Origin: Opitutales bacterium | GTDB taxonomy: Bacteria; Verrucomicrobiota; Verrucomicrobiia; Opitutales; PNEW01 | Direction: 5' to 3' | Assembly (NCBI GenBank): GCA_965219535.1 | Contig: CBDCNV010000001.1 | Coordinates: 1,530,001-1,562,000 of the forward strand | Length of the DNA: 32,000 bases | Shown: positions 8,286 through 32,000 of the stretch, one piece after another | Layout: every line of letters begins with the position of its first letter | How positions within the stretch are numbered: position 1 is the first letter of the stretch | Position numbers and translations under genes: made by a program | The notes under the pieces: generated by a model | Told to the model about the DNA's origin: nothing | The model's input: the letters and a program-made list of their open reading frames with translations, nothing else | Databases searched by the model: none

Positions 8286-9379
8286 GTTATCTCGCAGATT
8301 TTCAGGATTTTTTCGGACCTTTTCGTTTGTTCCGCTATTTAACCCTGCGCGGGGTTTTAGCCGCCGCGACCGCGCTTTTTATAGGCTTTTTAATTGCGCC
8401 CTGGATTTTAGCAAAACTTCTAAAATTTAAGCTTTCGCAGTCGATGCGCGAGAAGTCTGAAGTAGGTGGTCTCGCTGAATTGCACTCACAAAAAGAAGAT
8501 ACACCTACAATGGGAGGGTTAATTATTTTTTTTGCGCTTGTTAGCAGCTCCCTTCTTTGGGCCAAGCCAAACATATATGTCATTACCGCGCTCCTGGTGT
8601 ATGTTGGGCTCACGATAGTCGGATTGATTGATGATTATTTAAAAATATCGCGCAAGAGTAGCAAAGGATTGGCCAGCCGCTATAAGCTGTTGTCACAAGC
8701 GATTATCGCTCTCTTTGTCTTGGGTTTATTGATGTTTAATCAAGATACGCATGCCCTTATGCGTGAGCTCTGGATTCCTTTTATCAAGCAACCCCTGATA
8801 GTTGAAATGCCATACTGGTTTTTAATAATATTCTTTTTCCTGATCCTTGCAGGGTCGAGCAACGCAATAAATCTTACCGACGGGATAGACGGATTAGCAA
8901 TAGGATGTACCGTTACCGTAGCTTTGGTATATTCAGTCATGGCATATTCAACAGGGCACGCCATAATTGCAGATTACCTATTAATAGGTTTTATTAATGG
9001 AGCCGGTGAGTTGGCTGTTATTTGTGCGGCGATGTTAGGAGCCAGCTTGGCGTTCCTCTGGTATAACGCGCATCCCGCTGAGGTCTTCATGGGGGACACG
9101 GGTTCTCTCGCACTCGGTGGTCTACTCGGGACAATTGCTTTCATGGTTCATCAACCGATCACGCTGATCCTCGTCGGCGGTATTTTTGTTATCGAAGCGC
9201 TCTCTGTAATCACCCAGGTGGCTTCCTTTAAATTTCGAGGTAAACGTGTATTCAAGATGGCGCCGATACACCACCATTTTGAATTAATGGGATGGGCAGA
9301 ATCGAAAGTCGTTATTCGCTTTTGGATTCTCTCATTAATTTTCGCAATTGGTGGCTTGGCCACGTTAAAACTCAGATAA
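8279..9379 (+). CDS. mraY: phospho-N-acetylmuramoyl-pentapeptide transferase MraY
   Basis: It is polytopic and carries NLTDGIDGLA, FMGDTGSLALGG and the HHHFE motif. It overlaps the murF stop by 7 nt. Confidence 0.95.
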   Translation: MLSYLADFQDFFGPFRLFRYLTLRGVLAAATALFIGFLIAPWILAKLLKFKLSQSMREKSEVGGLAELHSQKEDTPTMGGLIIFFALVSSSLLWAKPNIYVITALLVYVGLTIVGLIDDYLKISRKSSKGLASRYKLLSQAIIALFVLGLLMFNQDTHALMRELWIPFIKQPLIVEMPYWFLIIFFFLILAGSSNAINLTDGIDGLAIGCTVTVALVYSVMAYSTGHAIIADYLLIGFINGAGELAVICAAMLGASLAFLWYNAHPAEVFMGDTGSLALGGLLGTIAFMVHQPITLILVGGIFVIEALSVITQVASFKFRGKRVFKMAPIHHHFELMGWAESKVVIRFWILSLIFAIGGLATLKLR

Positions 9380-9384
9380 GCGCG

Positions 9385-10674
9385 ATGGGAATTCCAAACG
9401 AAATCAAAAGTCTGGTAGCTTACCCTGTTGCTCTATTTGGCAGCGGGGTCAGTGGGCGAGCGGTGATGGATCTTCTGAGGCACCATAATATTTCATTTCT
9501 CAGCTTTGATGAACGCGGCGGGGAGAATGATCGACATTTTTTTAATTCGAGTGACGCACGCGAGCATCTACTTGTTATCTATAGTCCAGGATTTCCCCAG
9601 AATCACCCCTGGTTACAAACCGCTCGCAGTGAAGGTTGTCTTTGTTTGGGCGAAATTGATTTTGCCTCCCTTTTCTGGAAGGGTCGAATAATTACTATTA
9701 CCGGAACAAACGGTAAGACGACTTTGACTGAATTTATATCTTTTGCTTTAAAGCGCCAGGGAACAGATGCCCTGGCTGTCGGTAATAATGGGGTCCCTTT
9801 TTCACGTCTTCACGATCTGAAGACAACTGAGCGGAAGGTGGCTGTTTGTGAAGTGAGTTCATTTCAAGCTGAATCCTTTCATTATTTTAAATCGGACGCG
9901 TTAATATGGACTAATTTCACTGAAGACCATCTCGATCGCTATAAGAATTGTGAAAACTATTTTTCGGCCAAATGGAATTTGGTGAAATCTTTGCGTCACT
10001 CATCTTTTATAGCGGGTGAATCAGTAGCCAAAGCAGCGGAGAAGTTTGGTTATCAGATGCCCGAATTTGTTGAAATCGTCACCGAGACTGAGGAATCACC
10101 ATGGAGCATACCCCATGGATCAGTATTTGCCACTTATCCTCAGCGTAATAATCTTCAGTTGGCCTTGAGCTACTGGGAAAGTGAGGGTTATTCGAAAACT
10201 ATTTTAAAAGATGCCGTGGTGCGTTTTCCCCCGCGCAGGCATCGTCTCGAAAAAGTCGTAGTGATTAATGATGTCAACTTTTGGAATGATTCGAAGGCGA
10301 CCAACTTTGCCGCGACATATGCGGCCCTTAAAGAATTTGATGAGCCAGTCATTTGGATTGGGGGAGGTCTGTCTAAAGGCGGCGACATTAAAAATTTTGC
10401 AAGGGAAGTAGCGGATAAAGTTAAATCGGCTTATTTGATCGGCGAAACGGCAGAGACAATAGCCAGCGGTTTTAATGAGAAAAATACGCCAGTTGACAGA
10501 TGTGAAACCATGCAAGACGCGGTATTTTCCGCATTCGAGAAAGCTGAGCCAAACGATATTGTCCTGCTTAGTCCTGGATTTTCAAGTCAGGACATGTTTG
10601 AAAATTATGACCAGCGAGGTACTAGTTTCGAGAACGCGGTAATGAGTTTAAAAGTGCCACTTAATACAAAATAA
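9385..10674 (+). CDS. murD: UDP-N-acetylmuramoylalanine--D-glutamate ligase MurD
   Basis: It has an N-terminal Rossmann GSGVSGRA, ITGTNGKTT and Mur-ligase domains. The ORF is open from 9292 (overlapping mraY), but M32 at 9385 lies just after the mraY stop. Confidence 0.9.
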   Translation: MGIPNEIKSLVAYPVALFGSGVSGRAVMDLLRHHNISFLSFDERGGENDRHFFNSSDAREHLLVIYSPGFPQNHPWLQTARSEGCLCLGEIDFASLFWKGRIITITGTNGKTTLTEFISFALKRQGTDALAVGNNGVPFSRLHDLKTTERKVAVCEVSSFQAESFHYFKSDALIWTNFTEDHLDRYKNCENYFSAKWNLVKSLRHSSFIAGESVAKAAEKFGYQMPEFVEIVTETEESPWSIPHGSVFATYPQRNNLQLALSYWESEGYSKTILKDAVVRFPPRRHRLEKVVVINDVNFWNDSKATNFAATYAALKEFDEPVIWIGGGLSKGGDIKNFAREVADKVKSAYLIGETAETIASGFNEKNTPVDRCETMQDAVFSAFEKAEPNDIVLLSPGFSSQDMFENYDQRGTSFENAVMSLKVPLNTK

Positions 10675-19476: not shown

Positions 19477-20748
19477 ATGCAGAGCGAAAATTTTAGTAAT
19501 CCGAATAAAATGTTTAGCGGTCAGGTAAATGATGAAACGATCCGGATAAAAATCGTCGGTATTGGCGGAGCTGGTAATAACGCAGTTGACCGAATTAAAC
19601 TGGATCACCTCGATAAAGTTGATCTCGCGGTAGTAAATACTGACAGCAAAGTTTTAAGTAATTCACTACTCGAGGAAAAGGTGATGATCGGACGTGAGAT
19701 CACCCGGGGCCTCAGTGCTGGCGGTGATGTCGATATCGGTAAGCGTGCGGCAGAATCCGATCGCGATCAATTGCTTCAGCTCGTTAATGGAATTGACCTT
19801 GTTTTTATAATCGCTGGTTTGGGGGGAGGAACGGGGAGTGGAGCGGCACCTGTTCTCGCAGAGATAGCTGCCAATCAGGAAGCTTTGGTTATCGCTTTTG
19901 TTACCTTACCATTTACGAATGAAGGCATTCGCAGGCATAATCAAGCAGAGGAGAGCCTCGCGCAACTGAGGGATTTATGCCATGCAGTTGTTCCCTTACC
20001 TAATGATATTCTCCTGCAGCAGGTTGACGAAAACGCCACCGTCCTCGACGCATTTACCCTCGCAGATGAATGGATATATCGTGGGGTGCATTCCATTTGG
20101 TCGATGATAAAAAAGACCGGTCTTATCAATGTCGATTTTGCTACCTTGAGAAACGCGTTTGAGAACAGGGGGGGGAAGACCCTTTTTGGTCTGGGATATG
20201 GTGAAGGTGAAAATTATGTCGATAAAGCGTTCGATGATCTAAAACTCTGCCCTTTATTACATACACCTGAATTTTCAAAACGCGCAGATTCACTCATTGT
20301 AAACGTTTATGGTGGGACTGATCTTACAATGAACAAAGTCAATGAGATTATGACGGTTATCGGGGATCAATTCGGGAGCAAAGAAAATATCGTATTAGGA
20401 GCTTATATTGATGAGAGCATGCAACAGAAGCTGAGTATTACCGTATTGGGTACGACAAATCTGGACGGTATAAGAAGACGTTACCCCTCAGTAAAACCTG
20501 CTTTCGAGCCCGTGAAACAAGCCCAGAATCCAGCGTCAACAAAACACAAAGAAGAGCATTATTTACCTGCTGTTCATGAATCGAAAATTATGGATCAATA
20601 TGATAGAAAAAATAGTCAGGAGGAATTTATGTTCTCGAGCAATGAGGAACAGAGGGGGTATTTTAATAAAACAGATCGTAATTTCTATGAAGGCGAAGAT
20701 CTTGATGTACCGACCTATCTCCGGCGTGGAATTAAAATAAATTTGTGA
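19477..20748 (+). CDS. ftsZ: cell division GTPase FtsZ
   Basis: It has the tubulin signature GGGTGSGAAPV, GIGGAGNNAV, an NTD T7-loop region, a long disordered linker and the conserved C-terminal peptide DLDVPTYLRRG. Confidence 0.97.
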   Translation: MQSENFSNPNKMFSGQVNDETIRIKIVGIGGAGNNAVDRIKLDHLDKVDLAVVNTDSKVLSNSLLEEKVMIGREITRGLSAGGDVDIGKRAAESDRDQLLQLVNGIDLVFIIAGLGGGTGSGAAPVLAEIAANQEALVIAFVTLPFTNEGIRRHNQAEESLAQLRDLCHAVVPLPNDILLQQVDENATVLDAFTLADEWIYRGVHSIWSMIKKTGLINVDFATLRNAFENRGGKTLFGLGYGEGENYVDKAFDDLKLCPLLHTPEFSKRADSLIVNVYGGTDLTMNKVNEIMTVIGDQFGSKENIVLGAYIDESMQQKLSITVLGTTNLDGIRRRYPSVKPAFEPVKQAQNPASTKHKEEHYLPAVHESKIMDQYDRKNSQEEFMFSSNEEQRGYFNKTDRNFYEGEDLDVPTYLRRGIKINL

Positions 20749-20821
20749 TCAAAATAAATGCATAATGTTTTTCATTCATTTTCATTGAAATCTTTCAACT
20801 TCCGCATCTAAATCTGGTGGT

Positions 20822-21064
20822 GTGAAAGTCATCGTTTACGTTACCCCCAAAAAGAATGTCCTCGATCCCCAGGGATCTGCGGTCGGGCAGGCAATGAAAA
20901 GCCTCGGCTATGATCAGGCAGAAAATGTCCGTGTTGGAAAAACAATAGAATTTCAAATTCAGGGTGAGGACACACCTGATTTCCGCGCTTCGCTTGATAA
21001 ACTCTGTTTTGACTTATTAAGTAACCCGATTATCGAGGATTATCGTTACGAATTAGCTGATTAG
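20822..21064 (+). CDS. purS: phosphoribosylformylglycinamidine synthase subunit PurS
   Basis: 80 aa, GTG start preceded by GGTGG. The sequence VYVTPKKNVLDPQGSAVGQAMKSLGY....VRVGK is the typical PurS fold sequence. No purQ or purL is adjacent. Confidence 0.85.
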   Translation: MKVIVYVTPKKNVLDPQGSAVGQAMKSLGYDQAENVRVGKTIEFQIQGEDTPDFRASLDKLCFDLLSNPIIEDYRYELAD

Positions 21065-21111
21065 TAACGGGGCTAAAGTTAGTTTTCAGAATAGAACCGA
21101 CCCCCTAATTT

Positions 21112-21345
21112 CCTCATCTTCGTCTTCGTCTGCCTCATCGTCTTCGTCCAAAATAATTTCCGACAATATTTCGTCGCGTAATTTGCATCCGATGGTGGAA
21201 CACTTTGCCTGACGGCCATAGGCTATGCAACGGCTGTTTCCGAGCGCGTTTGATTCTGTCGTAATTTAAGAAGCGTGCTAGGGACAGCCCGCTCCACCTT
21301 AAATAGCTCATAGGACGAAGAGACAGACGAAGACGATGACGAAGC
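21112..21345 (+). promoter_or_regulatory. structured leader/element: ~165-nt core bracketed by inverted arrays of the heptamer CTTCGTC (left x3) and GACGAAG (right x3); the right arm covers the ATG at 21336
   Basis: Read directly. CTTCGTC occurs at 21118, 21124 and 21142. GACGAAG occurs at 21314, 21328 and 21338. A perfect 14-bp complement exists between 21135-21148 (TCATCGTCTTCGTC) and 21328-21341. Internal helices are possible: GGTGGA 21194-21199 / TCCACC 21293-21298; GGCTGT 21232-21237 / ACAGCC 21284-21289; AGCGCG 21243-21248 / CGTGCT 21274-21279. It matches no RNA family I can recognise. Confidence 0.35.
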
Positions 21346-22475
21346 TTATTATTAACGAGGCGGGTTCAGTTCTCGACAATAAAGCTTTACTTGCGGTCTC
21401 GACAGTTTTTACCCTTAGCAAGGTGAGTAAACTTGAAGGTATATTTGTCCCTAATATCGTTCCTTTTGATGAAGAGGGAAAAATAAATGAAGATGAATTG
21501 CGTCGCCAAACTAACTGGTTGATTGATAAGGGAGTCTCCGGTCTTTATCCCAATGGGAGTTCGGGTGAATTCATTCGGCTCAGTTTCGAAGAGCGTAAGC
21601 GAATTATCGCAATTATGAGCAGTGAGGTGAGGGGGCGAGTGCCTATTCTCGCAGGGGGTGCTGAAGCAAATCTGGATATGATTCTTGAGGCCTGTAAAAC
21701 CTACGCTGATTATGGTTGTTCTGCCGTTTCTATTACTGGTCCTTATTATTACAATGTAAGCCAGGAAAGTATTGAGGAACTTTTTCGAGAGATTGCTGCT
21801 AAATCACCAATAGGGATCGTCATGTATAATATCCCCCAGTTTTCCAATGAAATCAGTGTACCGGTGGTTAAGCGTTTGGCCTTGGATTGTCCCAATATTG
21901 TCGGGATTAAAGACAGCAGCCGCGATATGCCGCGTTTTATTAATACCCTGAATGAAATTAAACCCCAACGTCCTGATTTCAGTGTTCTCGTAGGTTGTGA
22001 GGAAATACTATTTTCCACACTGATGATGGGAGGCGATGGGGGGACAATAGCAACCTCTGGAGTTGTCCCAGAGGCAGTAATGAAGCTCTATAATTGTTTT
22101 CTCTCGGGAGATCTGGACGAAGCAAAGCGGATTCAGTTTAAGCTTTTAGATCTCATTAACACAATGCTTTATGCTCCCGATTTTCCCCATGGATTTCGCA
22201 TCGGCTACGAATTAAGAGGATTCAATATGGGCAGTTCCCGTTACGTGCTTTCGCCGCGTGAGAAAGTGGAGTTGGATAATATCCGTTCAAAAGTTGCCTG
22301 CCTGCTCACGGAATGTGGTTTCGAAGAAGCGGCGAATAAGTGTCATATGCCAAGGGCAGATCTCGCACAACCATATAAAGGCACAACATTGGCAGACAAA
22401 CAGCCCTCTAGGGGAAAGACCGTTGACGTGGACAAAATAGTAGACGAGGTACTACGGAGTCTTGGTAAGAAATAA
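21336..22475 (+). CDS. DHDPS/N-acetylneuraminate-lyase-family class I (Schiff-base) pyruvate aldolase with a 50-aa C-terminal extension (linker plus amphipathic helix); N-terminal start ambiguous (ATG 21336 or GTG 21423)
   Basis: Family motifs are present: NGSSGEF (GxxGE), MYNIP (YN.P tyrosine) and VGIKDSS (Schiff-base lysine). The canonical N-terminus SKLEGIFVPNIVPFDEEGKINEDEL begins at the GTG at 21423. The family is normally ~290-300 aa; this ORF is 379 aa. The tail is EEAANKCHMPRADLAQPYKGTTLADKQPSRGKT-VDVDKIVDEVLRSLGKK. Confidence 0.85.
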   Translation: MTKLIINEAGSVLDNKALLAVSTVFTLSKVSKLEGIFVPNIVPFDEEGKINEDELRRQTNWLIDKGVSGLYPNGSSGEFIRLSFEERKRIIAIMSSEVRGRVPILAGGAEANLDMILEACKTYADYGCSAVSITGPYYYNVSQESIEELFREIAAKSPIGIVMYNIPQFSNEISVPVVKRLALDCPNIVGIKDSSRDMPRFINTLNEIKPQRPDFSVLVGCEEILFSTLMMGGDGGTIATSGVVPEAVMKLYNCFLSGDLDEAKRIQFKLLDLINTMLYAPDFPHGFRIGYELRGFNMGSSRYVLSPREKVELDNIRSKVACLLTECGFEEAANKCHMPRADLAQPYKGTTLADKQPSRGKTVDVDKIVDEVLRSLGKK

Positions 22476-22498
22476 ATCCCGCCTAAAATAATTATAAC

Positions 22499-23140
22499 AT
22501 GGCAAAAACCTCTGAAGCGATCACCGCCTTGGGCTTTGCCGAGGTTCCTTTCTGGAGTATTGGCGCGGTGGTGGCAGATACGATGGTTAAAGAGGCCAGG
22601 GTGACGCTGCTGGGGTTAGATACTACCGCCCTTGAAAATATCTTAATCCGCGTTGCCGGTGATGTATCAGATGTCAAATCCTCACTGCAAACCGCGATCG
22701 ATTTTGGCCGTGAACTGGGGGTAGAAGTAATTATCGGTGTTATTCCTTCTCCGGAGAGTGGATTTGATAAGGCGGTTAATTACCCCAATGCCATCAATCC
22801 TATTTATGGGGCACGTGAACAATTTTTACCAAGCGATTATAAAATAACACAGAAACAAAATATGAATGATAATCAACATGCATTAGGATTCCTGGAAACG
22901 CAGGGGCTTGTCGCGGTTTTAGAAGCAACGGATGCGATGCTCAAATCCGCAAATGTCACCCTTGTGGGAAAAGAAAAAATTGGGGCTGCTTATGTCACCG
23001 TGGTAGTAAAGGGTGACGTTGCGGCGGTCACCGCGGCGGTTGACGCCGGTAAAGAAGCGGTTAATGGATTAGGTACCCTTATCGCTTCACATGTAATTGC
23101 GCGACCCCATGCTGATCTTGCTGCGCTTCTTCCCGCTTAA
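22499..23140 (+). CDS. bacterial microcompartment shell protein, tandem BMC-domain (BMC-T type)
   Basis: Two Pfam00936-like domains sit in one 213-aa ORF. Domain 1 is ALGFAEVPFWSIGAVVADTMVKEARVTLLGL...IRVAGDVSDVKSSLQTA. Domain 2 is ALGFLETQGLVAVLEATDAMLKSANVTLVGKEKIGAAYVTVVVKGDVAAVTAAVDAGKEA (near-consensus). There are no cysteines. It starts 23 nt after the aldolase stop. Confidence 0.9.
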   Translation: MAKTSEAITALGFAEVPFWSIGAVVADTMVKEARVTLLGLDTTALENILIRVAGDVSDVKSSLQTAIDFGRELGVEVIIGVIPSPESGFDKAVNYPNAINPIYGAREQFLPSDYKITQKQNMNDNQHALGFLETQGLVAVLEATDAMLKSANVTLVGKEKIGAAYVTVVVKGDVAAVTAAVDAGKEAVNGLGTLIASHVIARPHADLAALLPA

Positions 23141-23248
23141 TCACTTTGTTCATAAAAGAGATATTCTCATTAGTAGAATAGCATCGTGAGGTACTGTTTT
23201 TATTGTTGTTGAGATTATTTTTTAGATGATCGATGCAGCTGTCTCGTA

Positions 23249-24403
23249 ATGATTAAACATATTTTTTCGGTAATAGTCATCTCTGTTTTATTTATAACCA
23301 GTAGTCCAATGAAAGAGAAAATATCAATGAATCAGACTGATCTCTATGTAAGTGGCAGTGAAGGCTATCACACATACCGTATCCCCGCATTGCTCGTATC
23401 AAAAAAAGATACAGTGTTGGCGTTTTGCGAAGGGCGTAAAACGGGTCAAAGCGATACTGGAGATATTGATATGCTCGTCAGATGTTCTGAAGACGGCGGT
23501 AAAACCTGGAGTAAACAAGAGGTAATCTGGGATGATGCGGCGAATGTCTGTGGCAATCCCTGTCCGGTTTTAGATGAAGAGACGGGTAAAATCTGGCTCT
23601 TAATGACCTGGAATCTTGGGACTGATTGTGAGAGCGAGATCATCGCCCAAACAAGCGATGATACGCGGCGAATTTATGTAACTTCCTCCCGTGACGATGG
23701 TTTGACTTGGGAAACGCCAAAAGAGATCACGTCATCGGTTAAGGAACCTGGGTGGACATGGTATGCAACTGGACCCTGTACGGGAATTCAGATTCAAGAG
23801 GGAAAATATAAAGGACGTCTTATCATACCCTGTGACCACATAGAAGCTGGGACGAAGAAATACTATTCCCATGTAATTTATTCGGAAGATCATGGTGAGT
23901 CGTGGGAATTAGGGGGAAGGACACCGGTTGACCAGGTGAATGAATGCCAGGCGGTGGAACTTGCGGACGGTAGTATTATGCTCAATATGCGTAATTACGA
24001 TCGAAGCAAACATACGCGCGCCGTTTCTATAAGTCATGATGGCGGCATAACGTGGGGTCCGCTAAACCGGGATCCTGCACTCATTGAACCAATTTGTCAG
24101 GGGAGTATTATTCGTTACACGCATGGTGCTCACGCAGATAAAAACCGAATCCTTTTTAGTAATCCCGCCAGTAAAACAGATCGGGAGAGAATGACCGTTA
24201 GGCTCAGTTACGACGAGGGTAAAACCTGGGCGGCATCAAAATTACTCCATGAGGGCCCTTCAGCTTATTCTGATCTTGCGGTTTTACCTCAGTGTGAAAT
24301 TGCCTGTTTTTATGAACGCGGGGAAACTCACCCTTACGAGAAAATCACTTTGGCCATCCTGGATCTATCCTCGTTGACGGATGGAGAGGATGTTCTCAAA
24401 TAG
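23249..24403 (+). CDS. exo-alpha-sialidase (GH33, BNR/Asp-box beta-propeller), probable signal peptide
   Basis: It has the YRIP (RIP) motif and FCEGRK. Five Asp-boxes are present: SEDGGKTWS, SRDDGLTWE, SEDHGESWE, SHDGGITWG, SYDEGKTWA. The C-terminal YSDL....FYERG contains the nucleophile Tyr/Glu region. The N-terminus MIKHIFSVIVISVLFITSSP is signal-peptide-like. Confidence 0.9.
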   Translation: MIKHIFSVIVISVLFITSSPMKEKISMNQTDLYVSGSEGYHTYRIPALLVSKKDTVLAFCEGRKTGQSDTGDIDMLVRCSEDGGKTWSKQEVIWDDAANVCGNPCPVLDEETGKIWLLMTWNLGTDCESEIIAQTSDDTRRIYVTSSRDDGLTWETPKEITSSVKEPGWTWYATGPCTGIQIQEGKYKGRLIIPCDHIEAGTKKYYSHVIYSEDHGESWELGGRTPVDQVNECQAVELADGSIMLNMRNYDRSKHTRAVSISHDGGITWGPLNRDPALIEPICQGSIIRYTHGAHADKNRILFSNPASKTDRERMTVRLSYDEGKTWAASKLLHEGPSAYSDLAVLPQCEIACFYERGETHPYEKITLAILDLSSLTDGEDVLK

Positions 24404-24407
24404 CGTC

Positions 24408-25439
24408 ATGGCCAGAATCAATGATCATCGCGAGTATTCACAAGGTAAAGTACCGTTGATTGATGTCGAGGGGACGGCCTTCGAATGCGGTGTCATGCTC
24501 GGTTACGCCTGGCAGGAGTCTTTACAGCTTAGGGCAAGCCGGATTGTTCACGGTTCAATTCCGTGGTGGAAGAATAAAAAATTCAACCGGCTCATAAAAA
24601 AATTTACACCTCATATCCCTGATGTATTTCTTGGAATGGCAAAGGGTTCGGGATTAAATGAAAATCAGATAGGAACTATCGGTCACGTAGAAGATGACGG
24701 GTGCACTTCTTTTGCGATTCAACCATCCGCGTCCCTCGACGGCATCCCTATTTCGGGACAATCTAAGGACACCGACGCATTCCGACAGTTTCAATTTCAA
24801 GTACTGCGTCTGAAGATGAGTAACGCGCCATCGGCATTAACGCTTACCTACCCGGGGTGGCTTTTTGGGCACGGATTTGTTCAAGGTCGTTGTTCAATTT
24901 TTCGCAATGCACTCTACGTTGATAACCCCAAGGGCGACCTGCCTTATTCGGCTTGGGGATTGATTGCTTTGCACTGCTCGTGTGTCGATGAGGTTATAGA
25001 ATTCACAAAACAATATCGGATTGAATTATGTGCTCACTGTACTGTTGCCGATGGGAAGGGTGGAGTAGCGGGAATTGAAATCACACCCCATGGAATTGGT
25101 ATTCTTAAACCCAAGCGTGGAATATATACCCATGCGAATTGTGTTGTTTCAAATAAACGCTTCGCAAAGACGGAAAATTTCGGTCAATTTACGCGTGAAA
25201 ATTCGCTTATGCGTGAAAGCACACTACGTAAGAATCTGGAACCTAACAACGGTCGATTGACTGCGCAGTTAGTTTACTGCAGCTTTTGTAATTTCATTGA
25301 CTTTCCCGAAAGTATCGATCGTCACGCTGGCGATGACGCACTAACCACTTCCGTCGTCATCGCAGAGCCAACCCTAGGTAAATTGCATGTCACGCGTGGG
25401 GCCGCTTCACGTAATTGGCCGGAAACTTACAGTTTGTAA
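24408..25439 (+). CDS. peptidase C45 / acyl-CoA:6-aminopenicillanic-acid acyltransferase-family Ntn-hydrolase-fold protein
   Basis: It has a Gly-Cys self-processing/nucleophile context (VEDDGCTSFAI) about 100 aa from the N-terminus, with size and layout typical of the family. ATG 24408 lies 4 nt after the sialidase stop. The ORF is open from 24381. Confidence 0.7.
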   Translation: MARINDHREYSQGKVPLIDVEGTAFECGVMLGYAWQESLQLRASRIVHGSIPWWKNKKFNRLIKKFTPHIPDVFLGMAKGSGLNENQIGTIGHVEDDGCTSFAIQPSASLDGIPISGQSKDTDAFRQFQFQVLRLKMSNAPSALTLTYPGWLFGHGFVQGRCSIFRNALYVDNPKGDLPYSAWGLIALHCSCVDEVIEFTKQYRIELCAHCTVADGKGGVAGIEITPHGIGILKPKRGIYTHANCVVSNKRFAKTENFGQFTRENSLMRESTLRKNLEPNNGRLTAQLVYCSFCNFIDFPESIDRHAGDDALTTSVVIAEPTLGKLHVTRGAASRNWPETYSL

Positions 25440-25551
25440 GTGGAGATCAGCGATGCTTCTTCTTTGCGGTGCTACGGCGTAGTCCTCCCGCGATGGCTGG
25501 TAGGACGAAGATGGATCCCTGTCTAAACCCCAAAGGGGTGCAGGTAAATAG

Positions 25552-25571
25552 CCAGGGGTTTTAGCCCCTGG
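25552..25571 (+). terminator. hairpin downstream of the C45 gene (CCAGGGG-ttttag-CCCCTGG), weak U-tract
   Basis: A 7-bp GC-rich stem lies ~110 nt after the + strand stop at 25439 and is followed only by TT. It is a possible terminator or part of a repeat element. Confidence 0.3.
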
Positions 25572-25582
25572 TTAAGGGATTG

Positions 25583-25606
25583 AAAAAAAGCGCCCTGAAG
25601 GGGCGC
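25583..25606 (-). terminator. Rho-independent terminator for the minus-strand dehydrogenase operon
   Basis: On the minus strand it reads GCGCCC-cttca-GGGCGC followed by TTTTTTT (the A7 run at 25583-25589 on the + strand). It lies ~225 nt downstream of the E1beta stop. Confidence 0.6.
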
Positions 25607-25828
25607 AGGTAAAGAGGTAATATAATGTAGATAATTTAGATTCCGAATTTTAAAAAATGTTATACCTCCACCTCTTCAGGGCGGGGTGTTATGATTTGTT
25701 GTCCAGAGGTTTCGCTATGCTTCACCTCTGGCTACTCGCCGATGCTCCCTAAGGAGCAAAATTTAAATAGCCTGCCCCAGGATTTTCTGTCACCCCTCCG
25801 GGGCGTGATTTACCCTTCTCACACCCAC

Positions 25829-26857
25829 CTAGGCGTGAGCGGGGACGGTCTCCTTAACGAGTTCGACTAACTTATCCGCGTTGGGGAGATAGAATTTTTC
25901 CAATTCTGGTGAGAATGGCACGGGTGTATGTGGAGGGGTGAGCATCTTTGGCGCTGCATTAAGACTGTCAAACGCCTTGGAGGAAGCGAGAGCCACAACA
26001 TCCGTTGCAATGGAGCACCGTGGATTGTCTTCATCGACAACAATTAGATGCCCTGTTTTTCGCACTGAATTCAGAATCAATTCCTCATCAAGCGGTGACA
26101 TCGAACGAGGATCAATCACTTCCACACTAATATCATCTTGCTCCAGTTTTAACGCTGCTTCATAGGCGATGAGCACCATCTTTGAAAAAGCTACGATTGT
26201 TATATCTGTACCCTCACGAACGACCTCTCCTTTCCCCAGGGGAAGAAGATACTCTTCTTCGGGAACCGGCCCTTTGGTGTCATAGAGCCCCTTGTGCTCG
26301 ACAAAGATTACAAGGTCGTCATCACGAATCGCTGATTTCAACAGACCTTTAGCGTCATAGGGAGTTGATGGGGTGACCAGTTTTAACCCCGGGAGGTGAA
26401 CGAGAAGGGAGTGGCAGGAATGTGAATGCTGGGCCGCAGCGTTAAACCCTCCCCCGATCATTGTCCGCATGACCATTGGGACCTTCGCTTTTCCTCCGAA
26501 CATATAACGCATGGCTGATGCCTGGTTCATGATCTGATCGAGACAGAATCCAAGAAAATCGATAAACATTAATTCTACGATGGGTCGCATCCCGCTGGCC
26601 GCTGCACCCGCGGCGCAACCTACAATGGCACCTTCGGTTATTGGGGTGTCGCGGACACGCGATTTCCCGAATTTTCCGACCAGTCCTTTGGAGACACCGA
26701 ACGGACCACCCCACGCATCAAACTCATCTGGGGCTTCATTTTGCGCACCCCCGGCTATATCCTGTCCAAGGATAAAAACGCTTTCGTCACGCTGCATTTC
26801 TTCGTGTAGCGCTTCATTGAGGGCTTGCCGGTAAGTAACTTTTTTTCTATCAGCCAT
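25829..26857 (-). CDS. 2-oxoacid (pyruvate/acetoin) dehydrogenase E1 component, beta subunit
   Basis: 342 aa with a transketolase-like pyrimidine-binding and C-terminal domain layout. The sequence (VTYRQALNEALHEEM...VFILGQDI...RVRDTPITE...PRSMSPLD) is typical of PdhB/AcoB. Confidence 0.9.
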   Translation of the reverse strand: MADRKKVTYRQALNEALHEEMQRDESVFILGQDIAGGAQNEAPDEFDAWGGPFGVSKGLVGKFGKSRVRDTPITEGAIVGCAAGAAASGMRPIVELMFIDFLGFCLDQIMNQASAMRYMFGGKAKVPMVMRTMIGGGFNAAAQHSHSCHSLLVHLPGLKLVTPSTPYDAKGLLKSAIRDDDLVIFVEHKGLYDTKGPVPEEEYLLPLGKGEVVREGTDITIVAFSKMVLIAYEAALKLEQDDISVEVIDPRSMSPLDEELILNSVRKTGHLIVVDEDNPRCSIATDVVALASSKAFDSLNAAPKMLTPPHTPVPFSPELEKFYLPNADKLVELVKETVPAHA

Positions 26858-26875
26858 GACTTAATACTCCTAAAT

Positions 26876-27886
26876 TTAATAATTCACGTATACATCATTC
26901 AGACAGTCTTCGGGTTCGGGAAAGGGAGAAGACCTGCCAAATTCAATTGCTTTTTTAATAACATCCGCGACTTTCTCATCGATGGCTTTCATTTCTTCTG
27001 GAGTAACGCCGATCGCTGGCGCGACATTATTGGCGAATAGGACGAGCGGGTCGCGTTTTCGCGCTTCAATGGCTTCGTTTGGATCACGATATTTTAAGTT
27101 ATCTCCCTCGAAGTGTCCATAGAAGCGGGTCGTTTTGCATTCAAGTAGGGAGGGCCCTTTCCCCGCGCGGGCATGTTTAGCGGCTTCTTTAGTCGCCCGG
27201 TGAACGGCGATAATATCCTGGCCGTCAACAATAACACCCGGAATATTATAGGATTTAGCGCGTTCAGCGAGGTCCTTTACATTCATGGCATAGGAGGTCG
27301 CTGTCGTCTGGGCATAGCCATTGTTTTCACAGACGAAAACGCAGGGCAGATCCCAGATCGATGCCAGGTTGAGGGATTCATGAAAGATACCTTCGTTCGT
27401 AGCGCCATCCCCGAAAAAGCAGACTGCTACCTGACCGCTATTTCGCAATTGGGCGGAGAGTGCCGCACCCACGGCAATCGGTGTGCTACCAGCAACGATA
27501 CCGTTGGCTCCGAGCATCCCCTTAGAAAAGTCGGCGATATGCATCGATCCTCCCTTTCCTTTGCAAATACCCGTTACACGACCATAGAGTTCTGCCATCA
27601 TGCCATCTAATTCTACTCCCTTGGCGACGCAATGTCCATGACCACGATGGGTAGAAGTGATATAATCGTCATCGTTTATTGCGGTCATTACACCGGAGGC
27701 TATGGCCTCTTCACCCACGTAGCAGTGGACGAAACCGGGGAGCTCTCCCGCCGCAAAAAGTTCGTGAACGGCTTCGTCAAAGTCACGAACGCGTCGCATG
27801 TTTTCATACATCTTTAACCCCATTGCATGATCAATATCAGCAAATGATGTGGTCTCTTTGGGGGTTTCAGTTGTTACCTCAGCCAT
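26876..27886 (-). CDS. 2-oxoacid (pyruvate/acetoin) dehydrogenase E1 component, alpha subunit (TPP-binding)
   Basis: It has the TPP motif FFGDGATNEG...(N)NGYA, plus FVHCYVGEEA and STHRGHGH. Its ATG lies 1 nt after the E2 stop. Confidence 0.9.
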   Translation of the reverse strand: MAEVTTETPKETTSFADIDHAMGLKMYENMRRVRDFDEAVHELFAAGELPGFVHCYVGEEAIASGVMTAINDDDYITSTHRGHGHCVAKGVELDGMMAELYGRVTGICKGKGGSMHIADFSKGMLGANGIVAGSTPIAVGAALSAQLRNSGQVAVCFFGDGATNEGIFHESLNLASIWDLPCVFVCENNGYAQTTATSYAMNVKDLAERAKSYNIPGVIVDGQDIIAVHRATKEAAKHARAGKGPSLLECKTTRFYGHFEGDNLKYRDPNEAIEARKRDPLVLFANNVAPAIGVTPEEMKAIDEKVADVIKKAIEFGRSSPFPEPEDCLNDVYVNY

Positions 27887-27887
27887 T

Positions 27888-28901
27888 TTATCCGTCCTCC
27901 AATCTCAGGTTTTCTATTTTATCAACTAAGTCTTTTAAAAAAGTGGCTCCTGCAGCGCCATCGGCCACGCGGTGATCTAAAGTTAAACCTAATTCAATAA
28001 ATGGCGCAAGAGCTATCTGACCATTGTCTCCAGAAACGGCAAGTTGCTGAATGCGTCCAACGGAAAGAATGCCGGTTTGAGAGGGGTAAAGCAAAGCAGT
28101 AAAACGATCGACTGGAAACATTCCCAGATTGGTGACGGAAAAGGTTCCACCTTCCAGTTCATCCGTCAGAGCACTGCGTGAGCGCACCAGTTCGACGAGA
28201 TATTTCCTCTCCTCACAGATCTCGGGAAGTGATAAGCCACAGGCCCCTTTGACTACAGGAATCATCAACCCCTCTTCCATGGCGATGGCGAGGCCGACAT
28301 TTGCCTGGGAATGGATGCGCAACCCAGCATCTTCATAGGAGGAATTAAGACGGGGATGTTCTTTCAAGGTTCGGGAGACACAGAAAATTATAACATCATC
28401 ATAGGCAATAGTTCTATCCACTTCGCGAAGCTCCATCATTCTTGAGGCGGAAGCGCGGGTGAAAAGAGTAATCTGCGGGACAGCTGCTGAATGGGTGACG
28501 GTACGTGTAATTGCTTTACGCATATCCGACCAGGGTTCCAAACTGCCTTCATCCTGTTGCGTTACTTTTTGCTCTATAGGAGCAGCTTCCGAAGATACAG
28601 CCGTTGCGACTGGGGTTCCTGATTGATCAGGGTCTTCAGTTGAAATATCACTTTCCGATTCACCTTCCGCGAGGATCCATGCGATTGTTTCGGCGACATC
28701 GATTTCATCGCCCTCCTGCGCGGTAATACGCGCGAGCGTACCGTCTGCCGGTGAACTCAACTGGTTAACGATTTTATCGGTTTCGATCTCCGCGATTTCC
28801 TGTTTTTTTTCTATCTTGTCCCCTTCTTTAACAAGCCAGGAGACGAGTGTTCCTTCAGTCATCGTCAAACCGAGTTTAGGCATTTTTACAGGAACAGGCA
28901 T
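27888..28901 (-). CDS. dihydrolipoamide acyltransferase (E2): lipoyl domain plus catalytic domain, without a peripheral-subunit-binding domain
   Basis: The lipoyl-lysine motif EIETDKI lies in residues 1-78. An acidic/Pro-Ser-Thr linker spans 79-~122. The catalytic domain carries FSVTNLG and the active-site DHRVADGA. No GTGPGGRI-type E3/E1-binding motif is present. It is 337 aa, against the ~400+ aa usual for E2. Confidence 0.88.
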   Translation of the reverse strand: MPVPVKMPKLGLTMTEGTLVSWLVKEGDKIEKKQEIAEIETDKIVNQLSSPADGTLARITAQEGDEIDVAETIAWILAEGESESDISTEDPDQSGTPVATAVSSEAAPIEQKVTQQDEGSLEPWSDMRKAITRTVTHSAAVPQITLFTRASASRMMELREVDRTIAYDDVIIFCVSRTLKEHPRLNSSYEDAGLRIHSQANVGLAIAMEEGLMIPVVKGACGLSLPEICEERKYLVELVRSRSALTDELEGGTFSVTNLGMFPVDRFTALLYPSQTGILSVGRIQQLAVSGDNGQIALAPFIELGLTLDHRVADGAAGATFLKDLVDKIENLRLEDG

Positions 28902-28982
28902 GGTCTTAAAAATGTTTAATCATTCATCAGCAATAATGTGAATAAAAAAAGATATTTATCTTATATTAACATAGATATAAAA

Positions 28983-29759
28983 TCATATACCTTTCATAAG
29001 AAATCCCCCGTCGATGTAAATGTCCTGACCGGTAATATAACTGGAAGCATCAGAAGCTAAAAAGATGACCAATCCGGATAGATCATCGAGCTGGCCCCAG
29101 CGGTTTAAAAATGTTGTTTCGGCTCTCTCTTTGCGTTTTTCAGGATCATTCCAGGATTTTTCGGAGATCTGTGTTCTAAAATAGCCGGGGCCAATCGCAT
29201 TGGCTCTAACGCCGAATTCCCCCAGATCCATGGCGAGTGATTTAGTAAGCTGTTTAAGACCCCCCTTAGAAGCGATATAAGCAGGGTTATCTGTAAACCC
29301 GCGTTCCGCATTTATGCTTGTAATATTGATAATCGAGCCATTTCCCTGTTCCTTCATCAATTTCCCCATGCGCTTACTCAGCTGAAATGGCGCTTCCAGG
29401 TTTACCTTCATTGTTTCATTCCACAATTCGTCGGGGTAATCCAGACCATCGCGCTGAAAGCTTACCCCTGCGCAATTTACTAATATGTCGATTCTCTGAT
29501 GGTCCGATTTTATATAATATACGAGCGCGTCCATCTGTTTCAGGTCAGTGAGATCGCAGTACTTTTCGCATGCATTTAACCCCTCGCTCTTTAGCTTCTC
29601 TTTCCTCTCGGTAAGAAGCTGTTGATCCCTATCAACGAGAACGACCGTAGCTTCCGCTTTGAGTAGTGCATTGGCCAATGCGCCGCCAATGCCGCCACAA
29701 GCGCCCGTGACAATGGCGATTTTGCCTTTCAGAGAGAAGAGTTTATTTAAGTAGGTCAT
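28983..29759 (-). CDS. short-chain dehydrogenase/reductase (classical SDR; KduD/gluconate-5-dehydrogenase/butanediol-dehydrogenase-like)
   Basis: It has the cofactor motif TGACGGIGGALA, NCAGV, the catalytic S...YIASK, and PG..RT. It is 258 aa. Confidence 0.85.
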   Translation of the reverse strand: MTYLNKLFSLKGKIAIVTGACGGIGGALANALLKAEATVVLVDRDQQLLTERKEKLKSEGLNACEKYCDLTDLKQMDALVYYIKSDHQRIDILVNCAGVSFQRDGLDYPDELWNETMKVNLEAPFQLSKRMGKLMKEQGNGSIINITSINAERGFTDNPAYIASKGGLKQLTKSLAMDLGEFGVRANAIGPGYFRTQISEKSWNDPEKRKERAETTFLNRWGQLDDLSGLVIFLASDASSYITGQDIYIDGGFLMKGI

Positions 29760-29882
29760 GGTATTAATTTTTCACTTTCTGTTCCCTCGTGGAATAGAGA
29801 ATGAGATACTTTATAAGTGCTTGACCTGTTTATTATATAAAGGAGATATATCAAGGGTTTAATCTCTTCTACACTCTGATAC

Positions 29883-30866
29883 GTGATCCGTTTTTCCGTA
29901 TTTTTCATCATCGCAGTTATTCTCTGCGCTTGCTCAAGGCATGAAGAATCGGGATATCGTCTTGCCGTCATACCTAAAGGATCGACACATGTATTCTGGA
30001 GATCCATTCATGCAGGGGCAGTCAAAGCCGAGAGAGAATTTAATGATGCAGGCGTCCCGGTTGAAATAATTTGGAAAGGACCGTTGCAGGAAGATAATCG
30101 GACCGCGCAAATTTATGTCGTTGAGAATTTTATAGGACAACAGGTAAATGGTATCGTCCTGGCACCCCTTGATGATACAGCGATTGTGGCACCGGTAGAT
30201 AAAGCCTACCGGGCAGGGATTCCGGTTGTGGTCATAGATTCCGGTCTCAATTACGATAAAAATGTAAGTTTTGTCGCCACGGATAATTTCAACGGGGGAC
30301 AGATTGCCGGTGAATACCTGGCAGAACTGCTTAAAGGTAAAGGCAAGGTAATTATGCTTCGCGTGCTCGTCGGTTCCGCCAGCGGAACGGCGCGGGAAGA
30401 AGGTTTTCTAGAGGTGATGAAAAAAAACCCTGGGATCGAGTTACTATCGACGAATAAATACGCGGGCGCCACACGCGATACCGCGCAAAGCGCTTCACAG
30501 AATTTACTCAACCGATTTGGTGACGTCGTGGATGGTATATATACACCCAATGAATCTTCAACCAATGGGATGCTGCTCGCGCTGCGTTCCATCGGCCGAG
30601 CGGGCGGTCAGGTTAAATTTGTGGGCTTCGATGGGGGAGAGCAGAACGTTCAGGGTCTGGAAAAAGGAGATATTCAAGGTCTTGTCATTCAGGATCCTTT
30701 TAAGATGGGCTACCTCGGTGTTAAAACCATGATCGAGCACCTGCAAGGTACGATTGTTGAAAAACGGATTGATACGGGAGCGACTCTCGTGACACTGAAT
30801 AATATCCAAAATGAAAAAATTCAAAATCAGTTATTTCCACCCTTAGACGAATATTTAGAATATTAA
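29883..30866 (+). CDS. periplasmic sugar-binding protein (type I PBP, RbsB/LsrB-like), probable lipoprotein
   Basis: It uses a GTG start. The signal sequence with Cys (FFIIAVILCAC) is followed by a typical monosaccharide-binding PBP sequence (RLAVIPKGSTHVFW...VNGIVLAP...PVVVIDS...FVGFDG). No permease or ATPase gene is adjacent. Confidence 0.8.
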   Translation: MIRFSVFFIIAVILCACSRHEESGYRLAVIPKGSTHVFWRSIHAGAVKAEREFNDAGVPVEIIWKGPLQEDNRTAQIYVVENFIGQQVNGIVLAPLDDTAIVAPVDKAYRAGIPVVVIDSGLNYDKNVSFVATDNFNGGQIAGEYLAELLKGKGKVIMLRVLVGSASGTAREEGFLEVMKKNPGIELLSTNKYAGATRDTAQSASQNLLNRFGDVVDGIYTPNESSTNGMLLALRSIGRAGGQVKFVGFDGGEQNVQGLEKGDIQGLVIQDPFKMGYLGVKTMIEHLQGTIVEKRIDTGATLVTLNNIQNEKIQNQLFPPLDEYLEY

Positions 30867-30908
30867 TGTTTCAGAAAAAGCAAAACCAGTAACAACAAGA
30901 ATAAAAAA

Positions 30909-32000
30909 ATGAAAGAACGATTTACCGAGTTGGCTGAATTCTATCGGGATAAACTTCTCAACGACACGATTCCTTTTTGGGAAAAAAATTCTATCGACCG
31001 TGAATGCGGGGGCTTTTTTACCTGCCTTGAACGTGACGGGACTGTCTATGATACCGATAAATTTATGTGGCTGCAGCCGCGCCAGGCATGGACATTTGCG
31101 ATGCTTTACAACCGTTATGAAAAACGCGATGAGTGGTTGGAGATAGCCAGGCACGGAATTGATTTTGTCACTAAGTATGGAAGGGATGAAGCCGGCGATT
31201 GGTTTTTCAGACTTACGCGCGAGGGAAAGCCGGTCCTGCACCCCTATAATCCCAATTCTACGGCTCTATTTTCCACCATAGCCTATGCCGAGTATGCGGC
31301 GATAACCCAGGATGAAGAGGATATTGCCCGTGCGCGGGAAACTTATGATTACCTTATTTCTGATCGTCCCAAACCCTATGCCCGTTTTGCTAAAGCTTAC
31401 CCGGGAACGCGCTCCTTGATCGGGTTGGGCGAACCCATGTTTAGAGCCCACGTTTCCTATGAAATTAAGTGGTTGATGGATGCGGATGAACTCAATCAAA
31501 CAATCGATGAATGTCTCAATGCCGTGTTTGATAAATTTCCAGATCCGAATCTTGGAATTTTTCGTGAGAATGTTGCACCTGACGGATCATTCGTGGATTC
31601 ATTAGAAGGTCGTCACATTAATCCAGGTCACGGAATTGAATGTGTTTGGTTTCTCATGGAGGTGGCTGAATTTCGAAACAACACGGAAGCGATTAATAAA
31701 TGTGTCGATGTACTCCTGAGTACACTGGATTTTGCCTGGGATAAAGAATATGGCGGTATCTATAATTTTATGGATGTCGAAGGTCACCCCCATCACGACC
31801 TTGGGTGGAACCAAAAATTATGGTGGCCGCATGACGAAATACTTATCGCGCTATCGATGGCTTATCGTCTTACCGGTAATCAGACTTGTTGGGACTGGTA
31901 TGAAAAAGCACATGAATATTGCTGGAATCATTTCAGTGATCCGGAATATGGCGAATGGTATGGTTATTTGGATCGCCGAAGTGAAGTCTATATGCCGCTT
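30909..32000 (+). CDS. N-acylglucosamine 2-epimerase (AGE/renin-binding-protein superfamily), C-terminus beyond the window
   Basis: Absent from the ORF track because it has no in-window stop. My translation from ATG 30909 gives MKERFTELAEFYRDKLLNDTIPFWEKNSIDRECGGFFTCLERDGTVYDTDKFMWLQPRQAWTFAMLY...GRHINPGHGIECVWFLME...WDKEYGGIYNFMD...KLWWPHDEILIA... It stays open for 364 codons to base 32000. This is an (alpha/alpha)6 AGE-family signature. Confidence 0.85.
   Translation, partial: MKERFTELAEFYRDKLLNDTIPFWEKNSIDRECGGFFTCLERDGTVYDTDKFMWLQPRQAWTFAMLYNRYEKRDEWLEIARHGIDFVTKYGRDEAGDWFFRLTREGKPVLHPYNPNSTALFSTIAYAEYAAITQDEEDIARARETYDYLISDRPKPYARFAKAYPGTRSLIGLGEPMFRAHVSYEIKWLMDADELNQTIDECLNAVFDKFPDPNLGIFRENVAPDGSFVDSLEGRHINPGHGIECVWFLMEVAEFRNNTEAINKCVDVLLSTLDFAWDKEYGGIYNFMDVEGHPHHDLGWNQKLWWPHDEILIALSMAYRLTGNQTCWDWYEKAHEYCWNHFSDPEYGEWYGYLDRRSEVYMPL

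Follow-up and report, generated by a model that had tools for sequence, protein, structure and literature searches.

The current study concerns two adjacent plus-strand genes in a window of 32,000 nucleotides from an Opitutales bacterium (positions 1,530,001 to 1,562,000 of contig CBDCNV010000001.1); all positions given below are those of this window. The first gene (21423..22475) codes for a class I aldolase of the DHDPS/NAL family, and the second (22499..23140) for a tandem-domain shell protein of bacterial microcompartments (BMC), class BMC-T. The results argue that the pair (21423-23140) is probably a two-gene satellite module of a Planctomycetes-Verrucomicrobia (PVM) type microcompartment, in which the aldolase would act on a keto-deoxy acid derived from a 6-deoxyhexose and yield lactaldehyde, and that the flanking genes are mere neighbours. 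The pair follows ftsA and ftsZ (19477-20748), which close the dcw cell-division cluster in the window, and purS. Genes were assigned by profile searches against Pfam and NCBIfam, and similarity to solved structures was scored for the sialidase, the N-acylglucosamine 2-epimerase (AGE) and the aldolase. By these means all of the genes named in an original prediction, which had been made from the DNA sequence, were found in the window. The families named there were right, whereas the start of the aldolase had to be moved, a C45-family gene had been omitted, the AGE gene is incomplete at the window end, and no E3 gene accompanies the 2-oxoacid dehydrogenase genes. The nearest genome record is an Opitutales chromosome from a metagenome-assembled genome (MAG; OY829953.1, 98% aldolase identity), and a further contig (L090) agrees with the window in gene order and carries an identical sugar-binding lipoprotein sequence.

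For the aldolase, an open reading frame (ORF) running from ATG 21336 would give 379 aa, but every homologue aligns from GTG 21423 (350 aa). Because the homologues all begin at that position, GTG 21423 is probably the start. The protein has the PF00701 fold (E 1e-56), and in an alignment with E. coli NanA, DapA and YagE (25%, 23% and 27% identity, respectively) the Schiff-base Lys163, Tyr135 and the GSSGE motif were found to be retained; it is a member of the DHDPS/NAL class I aldolase superfamily. It scored under every NCBIfam equivalog cut-off, including those of NanA (NF003164, 146.6 against 281; TIGR00683, 125.9 against 382) and DapA (TIGR00674, 142 against 206). Among its best 120 matches, which were taken as the homologue set, lengths range from 333 to 374 aa, identity outside the genus is 63–73% (65–70% for homologues from across Verrucomicrobiota), and the named members are mostly Verrucomicrobiota. 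JGI labels several of these homologues 2-dehydro-3-deoxy-D-pentonate aldolase, and often 4-hydroxy-tetrahydrodipicolinate synthase.

The latter label and the DHDPS family membership would fit a housekeeping DapA of lysine biosynthesis. However, Arg138 of DapA, which binds aspartate semialdehyde, is replaced by Phe140, and this phenylalanine is invariant throughout the clade, which argues that the aldolase is not DapA. Together with the TIGR00674 score and the 23% identity to the E. coli enzyme, this led to rejection of the DapA assignment, the probability of which is negligible. Relative to NanA, the GSTYN segment is lost, with TIATSG in its place, while the acidic pair GCEE parallels GYDE of NanA. 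Given this mixed retention, the active-site motifs alone do not fix the substrate. Membership of the NanA group was nevertheless rejected on the missed equivalog cut-offs, the change from GSTYN to TIATSG, and an association with sialic acid genes that is confined to one lineage (see below). It was also observed that the clade has invariant cysteines at C91, C99, C156 and C192. Just before the linker described below, residues ~290–307 (22290-22345) form a C-x4-C-x8-C segment, ACxLxxCGFxEAAxxC, which lies past the point where E. coli NanA, DapA and YagE end, and which might bind a metal, act in redox chemistry or serve for docking.

The homologues share a three-part architecture, in which a catalytic domain of ~305 residues is followed by a low-complexity linker of hypervariable sequence and by a conserved amphipathic helix, xD(A/V)(D/E)xIVREVMxxL. 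In the window, the linker is located at ~22341-22421 and the C-terminal helix, VDVDKIVDEVLRSLGKK, at 22422..22472, both on the plus strand. The AlphaFold2 model of the aldolase (mean pLDDT 83.8) has a TIM barrel up to residue ~306, a disordered stretch at 313–333 (pLDDT <50), and a helix at 336–348. The hydrophobic moment of this helix is 2.40, compared with 0.95 +/- 0.47 for shuffled sequences. The helix pattern was present in 117/120 homologue tails, compared with 11.6% of internal windows; this count was obtained with a looser pattern and the internal windows as control, and a stricter regular expression undercounted (101/120). The helix also resembles the N-terminal peptide of an aldehyde dehydrogenase (AldDH) encoded in the PVM locus of a relative, L027 (ETLVRDIVSEVLGRL, compared with DKIVDEVLRSLGK in the window aldolase). 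Such an arrangement of domain, linker and helix is typical of microcompartment encapsulation peptides; the tail is predicted to be one, and the aldolase would be encapsulated. That the tail resembles such a peptide had been proposed beforehand, and the modelled linker and helix, the hydrophobic moment and the conservation all bear this out.

The BMC-T gene starts 23 nt 3' of the aldolase gene. Its product has two tandem BMC domains (2 x PF00936), the second of which is PduA/CcmK-like (E ~1e-25), and no cysteine. The window thus holds what is expected of a satellite module, i.e. a shell gene (PF00936) that adjoins a cargo gene, and a cargo with a predicted encapsulation peptide. The neighbourhood was surveyed at 80 aldolase loci, taken from one genome per species, with flanks of up to 10 kb. 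Neighbours were scored by tblastn with defined queries and by GC3-filtered ORFs; greedy ORF calls contained spurious antisense ORFs (clusters c2 and c8, high-GC contigs). BMC-T immediately follows the aldolase in 51/80 loci, or in 50/76 among those with enough downstream sequence, and the loci with the pair span Opitutales, Limisphaerales, Chthoniobacterales, Akkermansiaceae and Pedosphaera. At 76 loci, the two ORFs closest to the pair on either side were assigned to Pfam families, which were then counted. The upstream ORFs (n=116) included ten short-chain dehydrogenases/reductases (SDR), six aldo-keto reductases, five enolase-superfamily dehydratases, five Amidohydro_2 proteins, and two each of rhamnosidase, PTAC and RhaT. 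The downstream ORFs (n=114) included seven MFS proteins, four SDRs, three sulfatases, three enolase-superfamily proteins, two rhamnosidases and two BNR_2 proteins, one of the latter from the window's own relative. The AGE and E1 families were not among the recurrent families of these nearest ORFs. The aldolase-BMC-T pair is therefore a widely conserved module, and the other genes of the window are conserved beside it only in near relatives.

These counts also bear on the idea that the tail is not a targeting peptide, and that the aldolase is cytosolic and the adjoining BMC-T a coincidence or a relic. The adjacent BMC-T is missing in about one third of the loci, a few members of the clade (L052, L059 and L070) have no tail, and encapsulation is itself a prediction from sequence and structure. 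The tail is nonetheless kept in 117 of 120 homologues despite the hypervariable linker, and it resembles the AldDH peptide; a shell gene beside the aldolase in 51 of 80 loci from several orders is also far more than chance would give. A cytosolic aldolase with a chance or relic shell gene is for these reasons hardly probable. Four further loci (L042, L058, L060 and L080) have a shorter, different aldolase tail, (A/S)MLxxIN(K/R/Q)R(V/I)P, which replaces the xIVREVMxxL helix; of these, L042 and L058 keep the adjoining BMC-T.

The region around the pair was found to be a hotspot of insertion sequence (IS) elements. In a 98%-identical strain, IS110 lies between purS and the aldolase (L003, 8911-9840), and a strain with 96% sialidase identity has a differing, IS-rich upstream side (L089, 1-8000). 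In another Opitutales genus, IS630-like and IS110 elements are located directly downstream of the aldolase (L012, 11800-15900). In this last genome the tailed aldolase is still in the ftsZ-purS position, with neither sialidase nor BMC-T.

The type of microcompartment is indicated by L027, a single MAG, in which a canonical PVM-type core directly adjoins the orthologous pair. The gene order there is aldolase, BMC-T, PTAC (PF06130), three BMC-H, BMC-P, AldDH, two BMC-P, and class II aldolase (PF00596). The PVM type is defined by a BMC-P triplet together with AldDH, PTAC and a class II aldolase (PMC4207490; PMC8217296 supplement). The L027 PTAC falls into an ORF cluster (c20) of which other members adjoin the aldolase in L007, L018 and L055, and additional BMC-H genes are located nearby in L007 and L055. 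PVM microcompartments, which process the lactaldehyde formed from fucose and rhamnose, are often found in Verrucomicrobiota, Opitutae among them (PMC4207490, PMC8217296, PMC8857213). PVM loci have been catalogued for Opitutae (PMC8217296 supplement), and most Puniceicoccaceae MAGs of North Sea blooms were reported to have a PVM (PMC8857213). The genome under study presumably carries a PVM core as well. The combination of a tagged aldolase with BMC-T had been described in the original prediction as not belonging to any of the well-known BMC types, which does not agree with the junction to a PVM-type core in L027. No text was found in the literature that describes an encapsulation-tagged DHDPS-family aldolase with BMC-T in PVM, and in the text of the PMC8217296 supplement pfam00701 is named only under the MUF2 type. 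That 2021 catalogue gives its PVM satellite loci in image form only, so that the pair may already be among those it depicts.

Information on the substrate came from the genes surrounding the orthologues. In L076, the pair forms an operon with a UxaA-type dehydratase, an SDR and an Amidohydro_2 protein, in the order dehydratase, SDR, Amidohydro_2, aldolase, BMC-T. The SDR scored as an L-fucose dehydrogenase at NCBIfam equivalog level (353, with a cut-off of 300), and the sole match of the Amidohydro_2 protein is L-fucono-1,5-lactonase. The same gene set was found in L068, L075 and L077, except that BMC-T was undetected in L075 and the SDR in L077. In L082 and L019, an enolase-superfamily dehydratase is located upstream of the aldolase, accompanied by a Gfo/Idh/MocA oxidoreductase; L-rhamnonate dehydratase is the best match of the L082 enzyme, which shares 86% identity with its L019 counterpart. 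Moreover, RhaT is present in eight of the 80 loci and a GH78 rhamnosidase in at least four. A context of 6-deoxyhexose pathway genes is thus seen around the orthologues in L068 and L075–L077, and partly in L009, L019 and L082, and about half of the loci carry at least one 6-deoxyhexose marker. The cleavage of L-2-keto-3-deoxyfuconate (L-KDF) to pyruvate and L-lactaldehyde by an aldolase is established for L-fucose breakdown by the non-phosphorylating route (PMC11199699), and a fucose-induced locus of C. jejuni contains dapA-like, uxaA and amidohydrolase genes (PMC12566272). The match of the L076-type gene set to both supports the reading of the protein as a keto-deoxy sugar-acid aldolase, and judged from this context its substrate is most likely 2-keto-3-deoxy-L-fuconate and/or 2-keto-3-deoxy-L-rhamnonate. 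A keto-deoxy sugar-acid aldolase that feeds the aldehyde-processing microcompartment of PVC bacteria, with the sialidase and AGE as neighbours, had been mentioned in the original prediction as an alternative. It is now favoured by the PVM core in L027, the operons with L-fucose dehydrogenase and lactonase, and the occurrence of RhaT and GH78.

In the proposed pathway, an oxidative, non-phosphorylative route of 6-deoxyhexose breakdown would supply 2-keto-3-deoxy-L-fuconate or 2-keto-3-deoxy-L-rhamnonate to the aldolase, which the C-terminal amphipathic helix would direct into the shell. Cleavage to pyruvate and L-lactaldehyde would take place inside the compartment, so that the toxic aldehyde would be released there and could be processed by the PVM aldehyde dehydrogenase and PTAC. 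BMC-T may adapt the permeability of the shell, possibly by letting the anionic C6 substrate or pyruvate pass; a tuning of permeability has been suggested for satellite shell proteins (PMC8217296). The module would constitute a second entry to the organelle, besides the class II fuculose/rhamnulose-phosphate aldolase.

The pair could also be targeted to the microcompartment and act on another 2-keto-3-deoxy sugar acid, either a pentonate, yielding glycolaldehyde, or 2-keto-3-deoxygluconate or 2-keto-3-deoxygalactonate (KDG/KDGal), yielding glyceraldehyde. This is consistent with the pentonate aldolase labels given by JGI, with YagE being among the closest solved relatives, and with the many neighbouring dehydratases that match no specific equivalog. 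An enolase-superfamily dehydratase with an iron-dependent alcohol dehydrogenase (Fe-ADH) past the window end (see below) would fit it as well. However, the specific markers that recur are those of 6-deoxyhexoses (L-fucose dehydrogenase, fuconolactonase-like lactonase, RhaT, GH78, and rhamnonate-dehydratase-like proteins), and the organelle to which the pair is attached is the lactaldehyde-processing PVM type. Another keto-deoxy acid as substrate is thus a rather unlikely possibility, though one to be kept in mind.

The dehydratase in question belongs to a minus-strand operon located after AGE in the same genome, 5–9 kb past the window end (L090, 12238-17492). The operon codes for a PIG-L protein, a 2-hydroxyacid dehydrogenase, the enolase-superfamily sugar-acid dehydratase, Fe-ADH, and a second 2-hydroxyacid dehydrogenase, and the dehydratase gene lies ~14 kb downstream of the aldolase-BMC-T pair. 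The best match of Fe-ADH was a 4-hydroxybutyrate dehydrogenase domain model, and it reached 280 bits on the lactaldehyde reductase model, under the cut-off. None of the dehydratase, Fe-ADH and two 2-hydroxyacid dehydrogenases was matched at NCBIfam equivalog level. The predicted functions are compatible with a local supply of keto-deoxy acid, though they are nonspecific.

Downstream of the pair, and on the same strand, lies a gene for a secreted GH33-type sialidase (23249..24403; PF13088, E 9e-38; signal peptide). It is similar to the solved sialidase of Micromonospora viridifaciens (1eur, 4e-54), and a RIP motif and five Asp-boxes could be read from its sequence. The following plus-strand gene (24381..25439) codes for a C45-family autoproteolytic acyltransferase/hydrolase of the Ntn kind (NCBIfam NF040521, 103 bits, cut-off 85). 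It shares 23 nt with the 3' end of the sialidase gene, and the two are therefore probably co-transcribed; it accompanies the sialidase in all relatives of the lineage. The AGE gene (30909..32000, plus strand) is truncated by the window end, and its full-length product in L090 has 392 aa. Its similarity to the solved GlcNAc 2-epimerases 6f04 and 2gz6 (E 1.7e-135 and 5.7e-132) marks it as a bona fide ManNAc/GlcNAc epimerase, as far as homology can tell.

From these genes the original prediction had drawn its main hypothesis, in which the aldolase is an encapsulated N-acetylneuraminate (Neu5Ac) lyase, and the sialidase, AGE, sugar-binding lipoprotein and E1/E2 make up a single sialic-acid island linked to a microcompartment outside the well-known types. 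Comparative data did not sustain this. Whereas the aldolase and BMC-T stay together in 51 of the 80 loci, GH33, AGE and E1/E2 were found with the aldolase only in near relatives. In the survey, the sialidase, C45, E1 beta, E1 alpha, E2 and AGE genes occur with it only in L001–L005 (aldolase identity >=90%) and in 0/75 other loci; the sugar-binding lipoprotein had one further match, of 34%, in L066. Loci reached via the sialidase added L086 (79% sialidase identity) and L089 (96%), in which the gene set is also kept, and in all the sialidase adjoins the aldolase only in L001–L005, L086, L089 and L090. The synteny that an island would need is thus absent beyond one lineage, and with 79–98% identity among the carriers a shared gene order has little weight. 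Moreover, both NanA cut-offs are missed by far and the GSTYN segment is lost, the orthologous pair joins a PVM core and fucose-pathway operons, and E1/E2 are encoded on the opposite strand and have no encapsulation-like tail. A different lyase is found where a related sialidase does have a partner. In L087, a PVC-type metagenome contig, a NanM-like mutarotase fused to an SSF transporter is followed by a sialidase 62% identical to that of the window and then by a NanA-like lyase (5403-10617). This lyase (312 aa) is tail-less, has N-acetylneuraminate lyase as its best family match, and is 31% identical to E. coli NanA and 26% to the window aldolase; by its predicted gene products, L087 is a compact canonical sialic-acid cluster. 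Metabolosomes sequester small aldehydes that are volatile or toxic, and ManNAc is not known to be of this kind, which also counts against an encapsulated Neu5Ac lyase.

Several observations do weigh against a PVM satellite module acting on 6-deoxyhexose derivatives, and some of them speak for the island. The contiguous PVM core was seen in the relative L027, and for the genome under study it is inferred. About half of the loci have no 6-deoxyhexose marker within 10 kb, and the window itself holds no fucose or rhamnose gene. The sialidase and AGE are genuine, and no other lyase is visible nearby. The aldolase, BMC-T, sialidase and C45 genes are co-directional and closely spaced, with 108 nt between the pair and the sialidase and no convincing terminator in between. 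The block is intact in L086 and in L089, where the pair is still attached to it despite the rearranged upstream side. Finally, the active-site motifs are compatible with Neu5Ac, since the acidic residues GCEE compare with GYDE of NanA. With the comparative evidence set beside these points, a sialic-acid island built on a new microcompartment type is considered very unlikely. There is a similarly slight chance that in this lineage the tagged aldolase has been recruited for, or is promiscuous towards, the sialic acids or other nonulosonic acids that the co-linear sialidase would release, with AGE taking the ManNAc. This idea is kept in play because the block survives the rearrangement in L089 and there is no other lyase near AGE; if true, a PVM-type organelle would take part in sialoglycan catabolism. 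The reading preferred here, a PVM satellite module fed from 6-deoxyhexoses, leaves the sialidase, C45, E1/E2, SDR, sugar-binding lipoprotein and AGE genes as lineage-specific neighbours that are, in our judgement, likely to be unwired to the microcompartment. It may be that some of them constitute a separate set for sialoglycans or amino sugars.

The remaining neighbours include three minus-strand genes for parts of a 2-oxoacid dehydrogenase complex. E1 beta (25829..26857; PF02779 and PF02780) scored 329 on NF006667 against a cut-off of 321, and E1 alpha (26876..27886; PF00676, E 6e-90) scored 357 on TIGR03182, under the PDH equivalog cut-off of 394. The E2 acyltransferase (27888..28901) has lipoyl and catalytic domains only (PF00364 and PF00198), which are connected by an acidic, Ser/Thr-rich linker; with Pfam and NCBIfam no E3-binding domain was detected in it and no E3 gene in the window. 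The minus-strand SDR gene (28983..29759; PF13561, E 7e-62) resembles KduD and gluconate 5-dehydrogenase but is under all NCBIfam cut-offs, and its product is 26–37% identical to SDRs near the aldolase in other lineages. The sugar-binding lipoprotein of the Peripla_BP_4 family (29883..30866, plus strand; PF13407, E 3.5e-61) has no transporter partners in the window, and neither a sialic acid transporter nor a mutarotase nor a ROK kinase was found there. The convergent C45 and E1 beta genes are separated by a gap of 389 nt (25440-25828) with GC-rich hairpins, one of which is terminator-like (GCGCCCCTTCAGGGCGC, followed by a T-run), and with a repeated motif, GGGG(T/C)GCAGGTAAA. An Rfam scan found no RNA family in the window. 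Promoter and terminator scans of 20700-32000 gave site numbers no higher than those of shuffled sequences, and were therefore uninformative on operon boundaries.

PVM microcompartments are regarded as a hallmark of specialised verrucomicrobial degraders of fucose- and rhamnose-rich algal polysaccharides, and the breakdown of these polysaccharides is a control point of marine carbon turnover. They have so far been described with one signature enzyme, the class II sugar-phosphate aldolase. If the function proposed here is true, a second, tagged aldolase of class I with its own BMC-T would mean that the organelle is also fed with lactaldehyde from an oxidative, non-phosphorylative route. The pair would then represent a natural plug-in module of enzyme plus shell pore, and would offer a candidate encapsulation peptide as well as a shell protein that might gate the passage of an anionic six-carbon substrate. 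The results also call for caution, as co-linear genes such as those for the sialidase, AGE and the pyruvate dehydrogenase-like proteins of a single genome can point to a pathway for which comparison across genomes gives no support.

Among known systems, the Bacteroides-type sialic acid pathway with E. coli NanA has in common with the window a sialidase and a genuine AGE near a DHDPS-family gene. It differs in that the window aldolase fails the NanA cut-offs and is missing GSTYN, the association is not conserved, and the cluster in L087 has another lyase. The loci of the L-KDF route share several families with the aldolase neighbourhoods (sugar dehydrogenase, amidohydrolase-type lactonase, and UxaA- or enolase-type dehydratase), as well as the products pyruvate and L-lactaldehyde; the portions of the texts available on the enzymes of this route mention no C-terminal extension or shell partner. 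Cj0481 of C. jejuni, annotated as a putative dihydrodipicolinate synthase, belongs by that annotation to the same family as the window aldolase.

The PVM microcompartment itself agrees with the window in phylum, in a core that is contiguous with the orthologous pair in L027, in lactaldehyde as the expected aldehyde, and in a cargo with an encapsulation peptide, a predicted one in the window aldolase. Its described signature enzyme is of class II (PF00596) and acts on sugar phosphates, whereas the window enzyme is of class I, belongs to the DHDPS family, and would act on a non-phosphorylated keto-deoxy acid; in addition, the characterised PVM locus of P. limnophilus has no BMC-T, unlike the pair in the window. 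Finally, the "EUT module" satellites, in which EutABC and an EutL-type BMC-T are added to HO/SPU microcompartments (Sutter 2021, PMC8217296), differ from the window pair in enzyme family, in BMC-T class (that of the window is tandem and non-permuted) and in the type of host BMC, but they share its logic, namely an aldehyde-generating enzyme that brings its own trimeric shell protein and is encoded away from the main locus.

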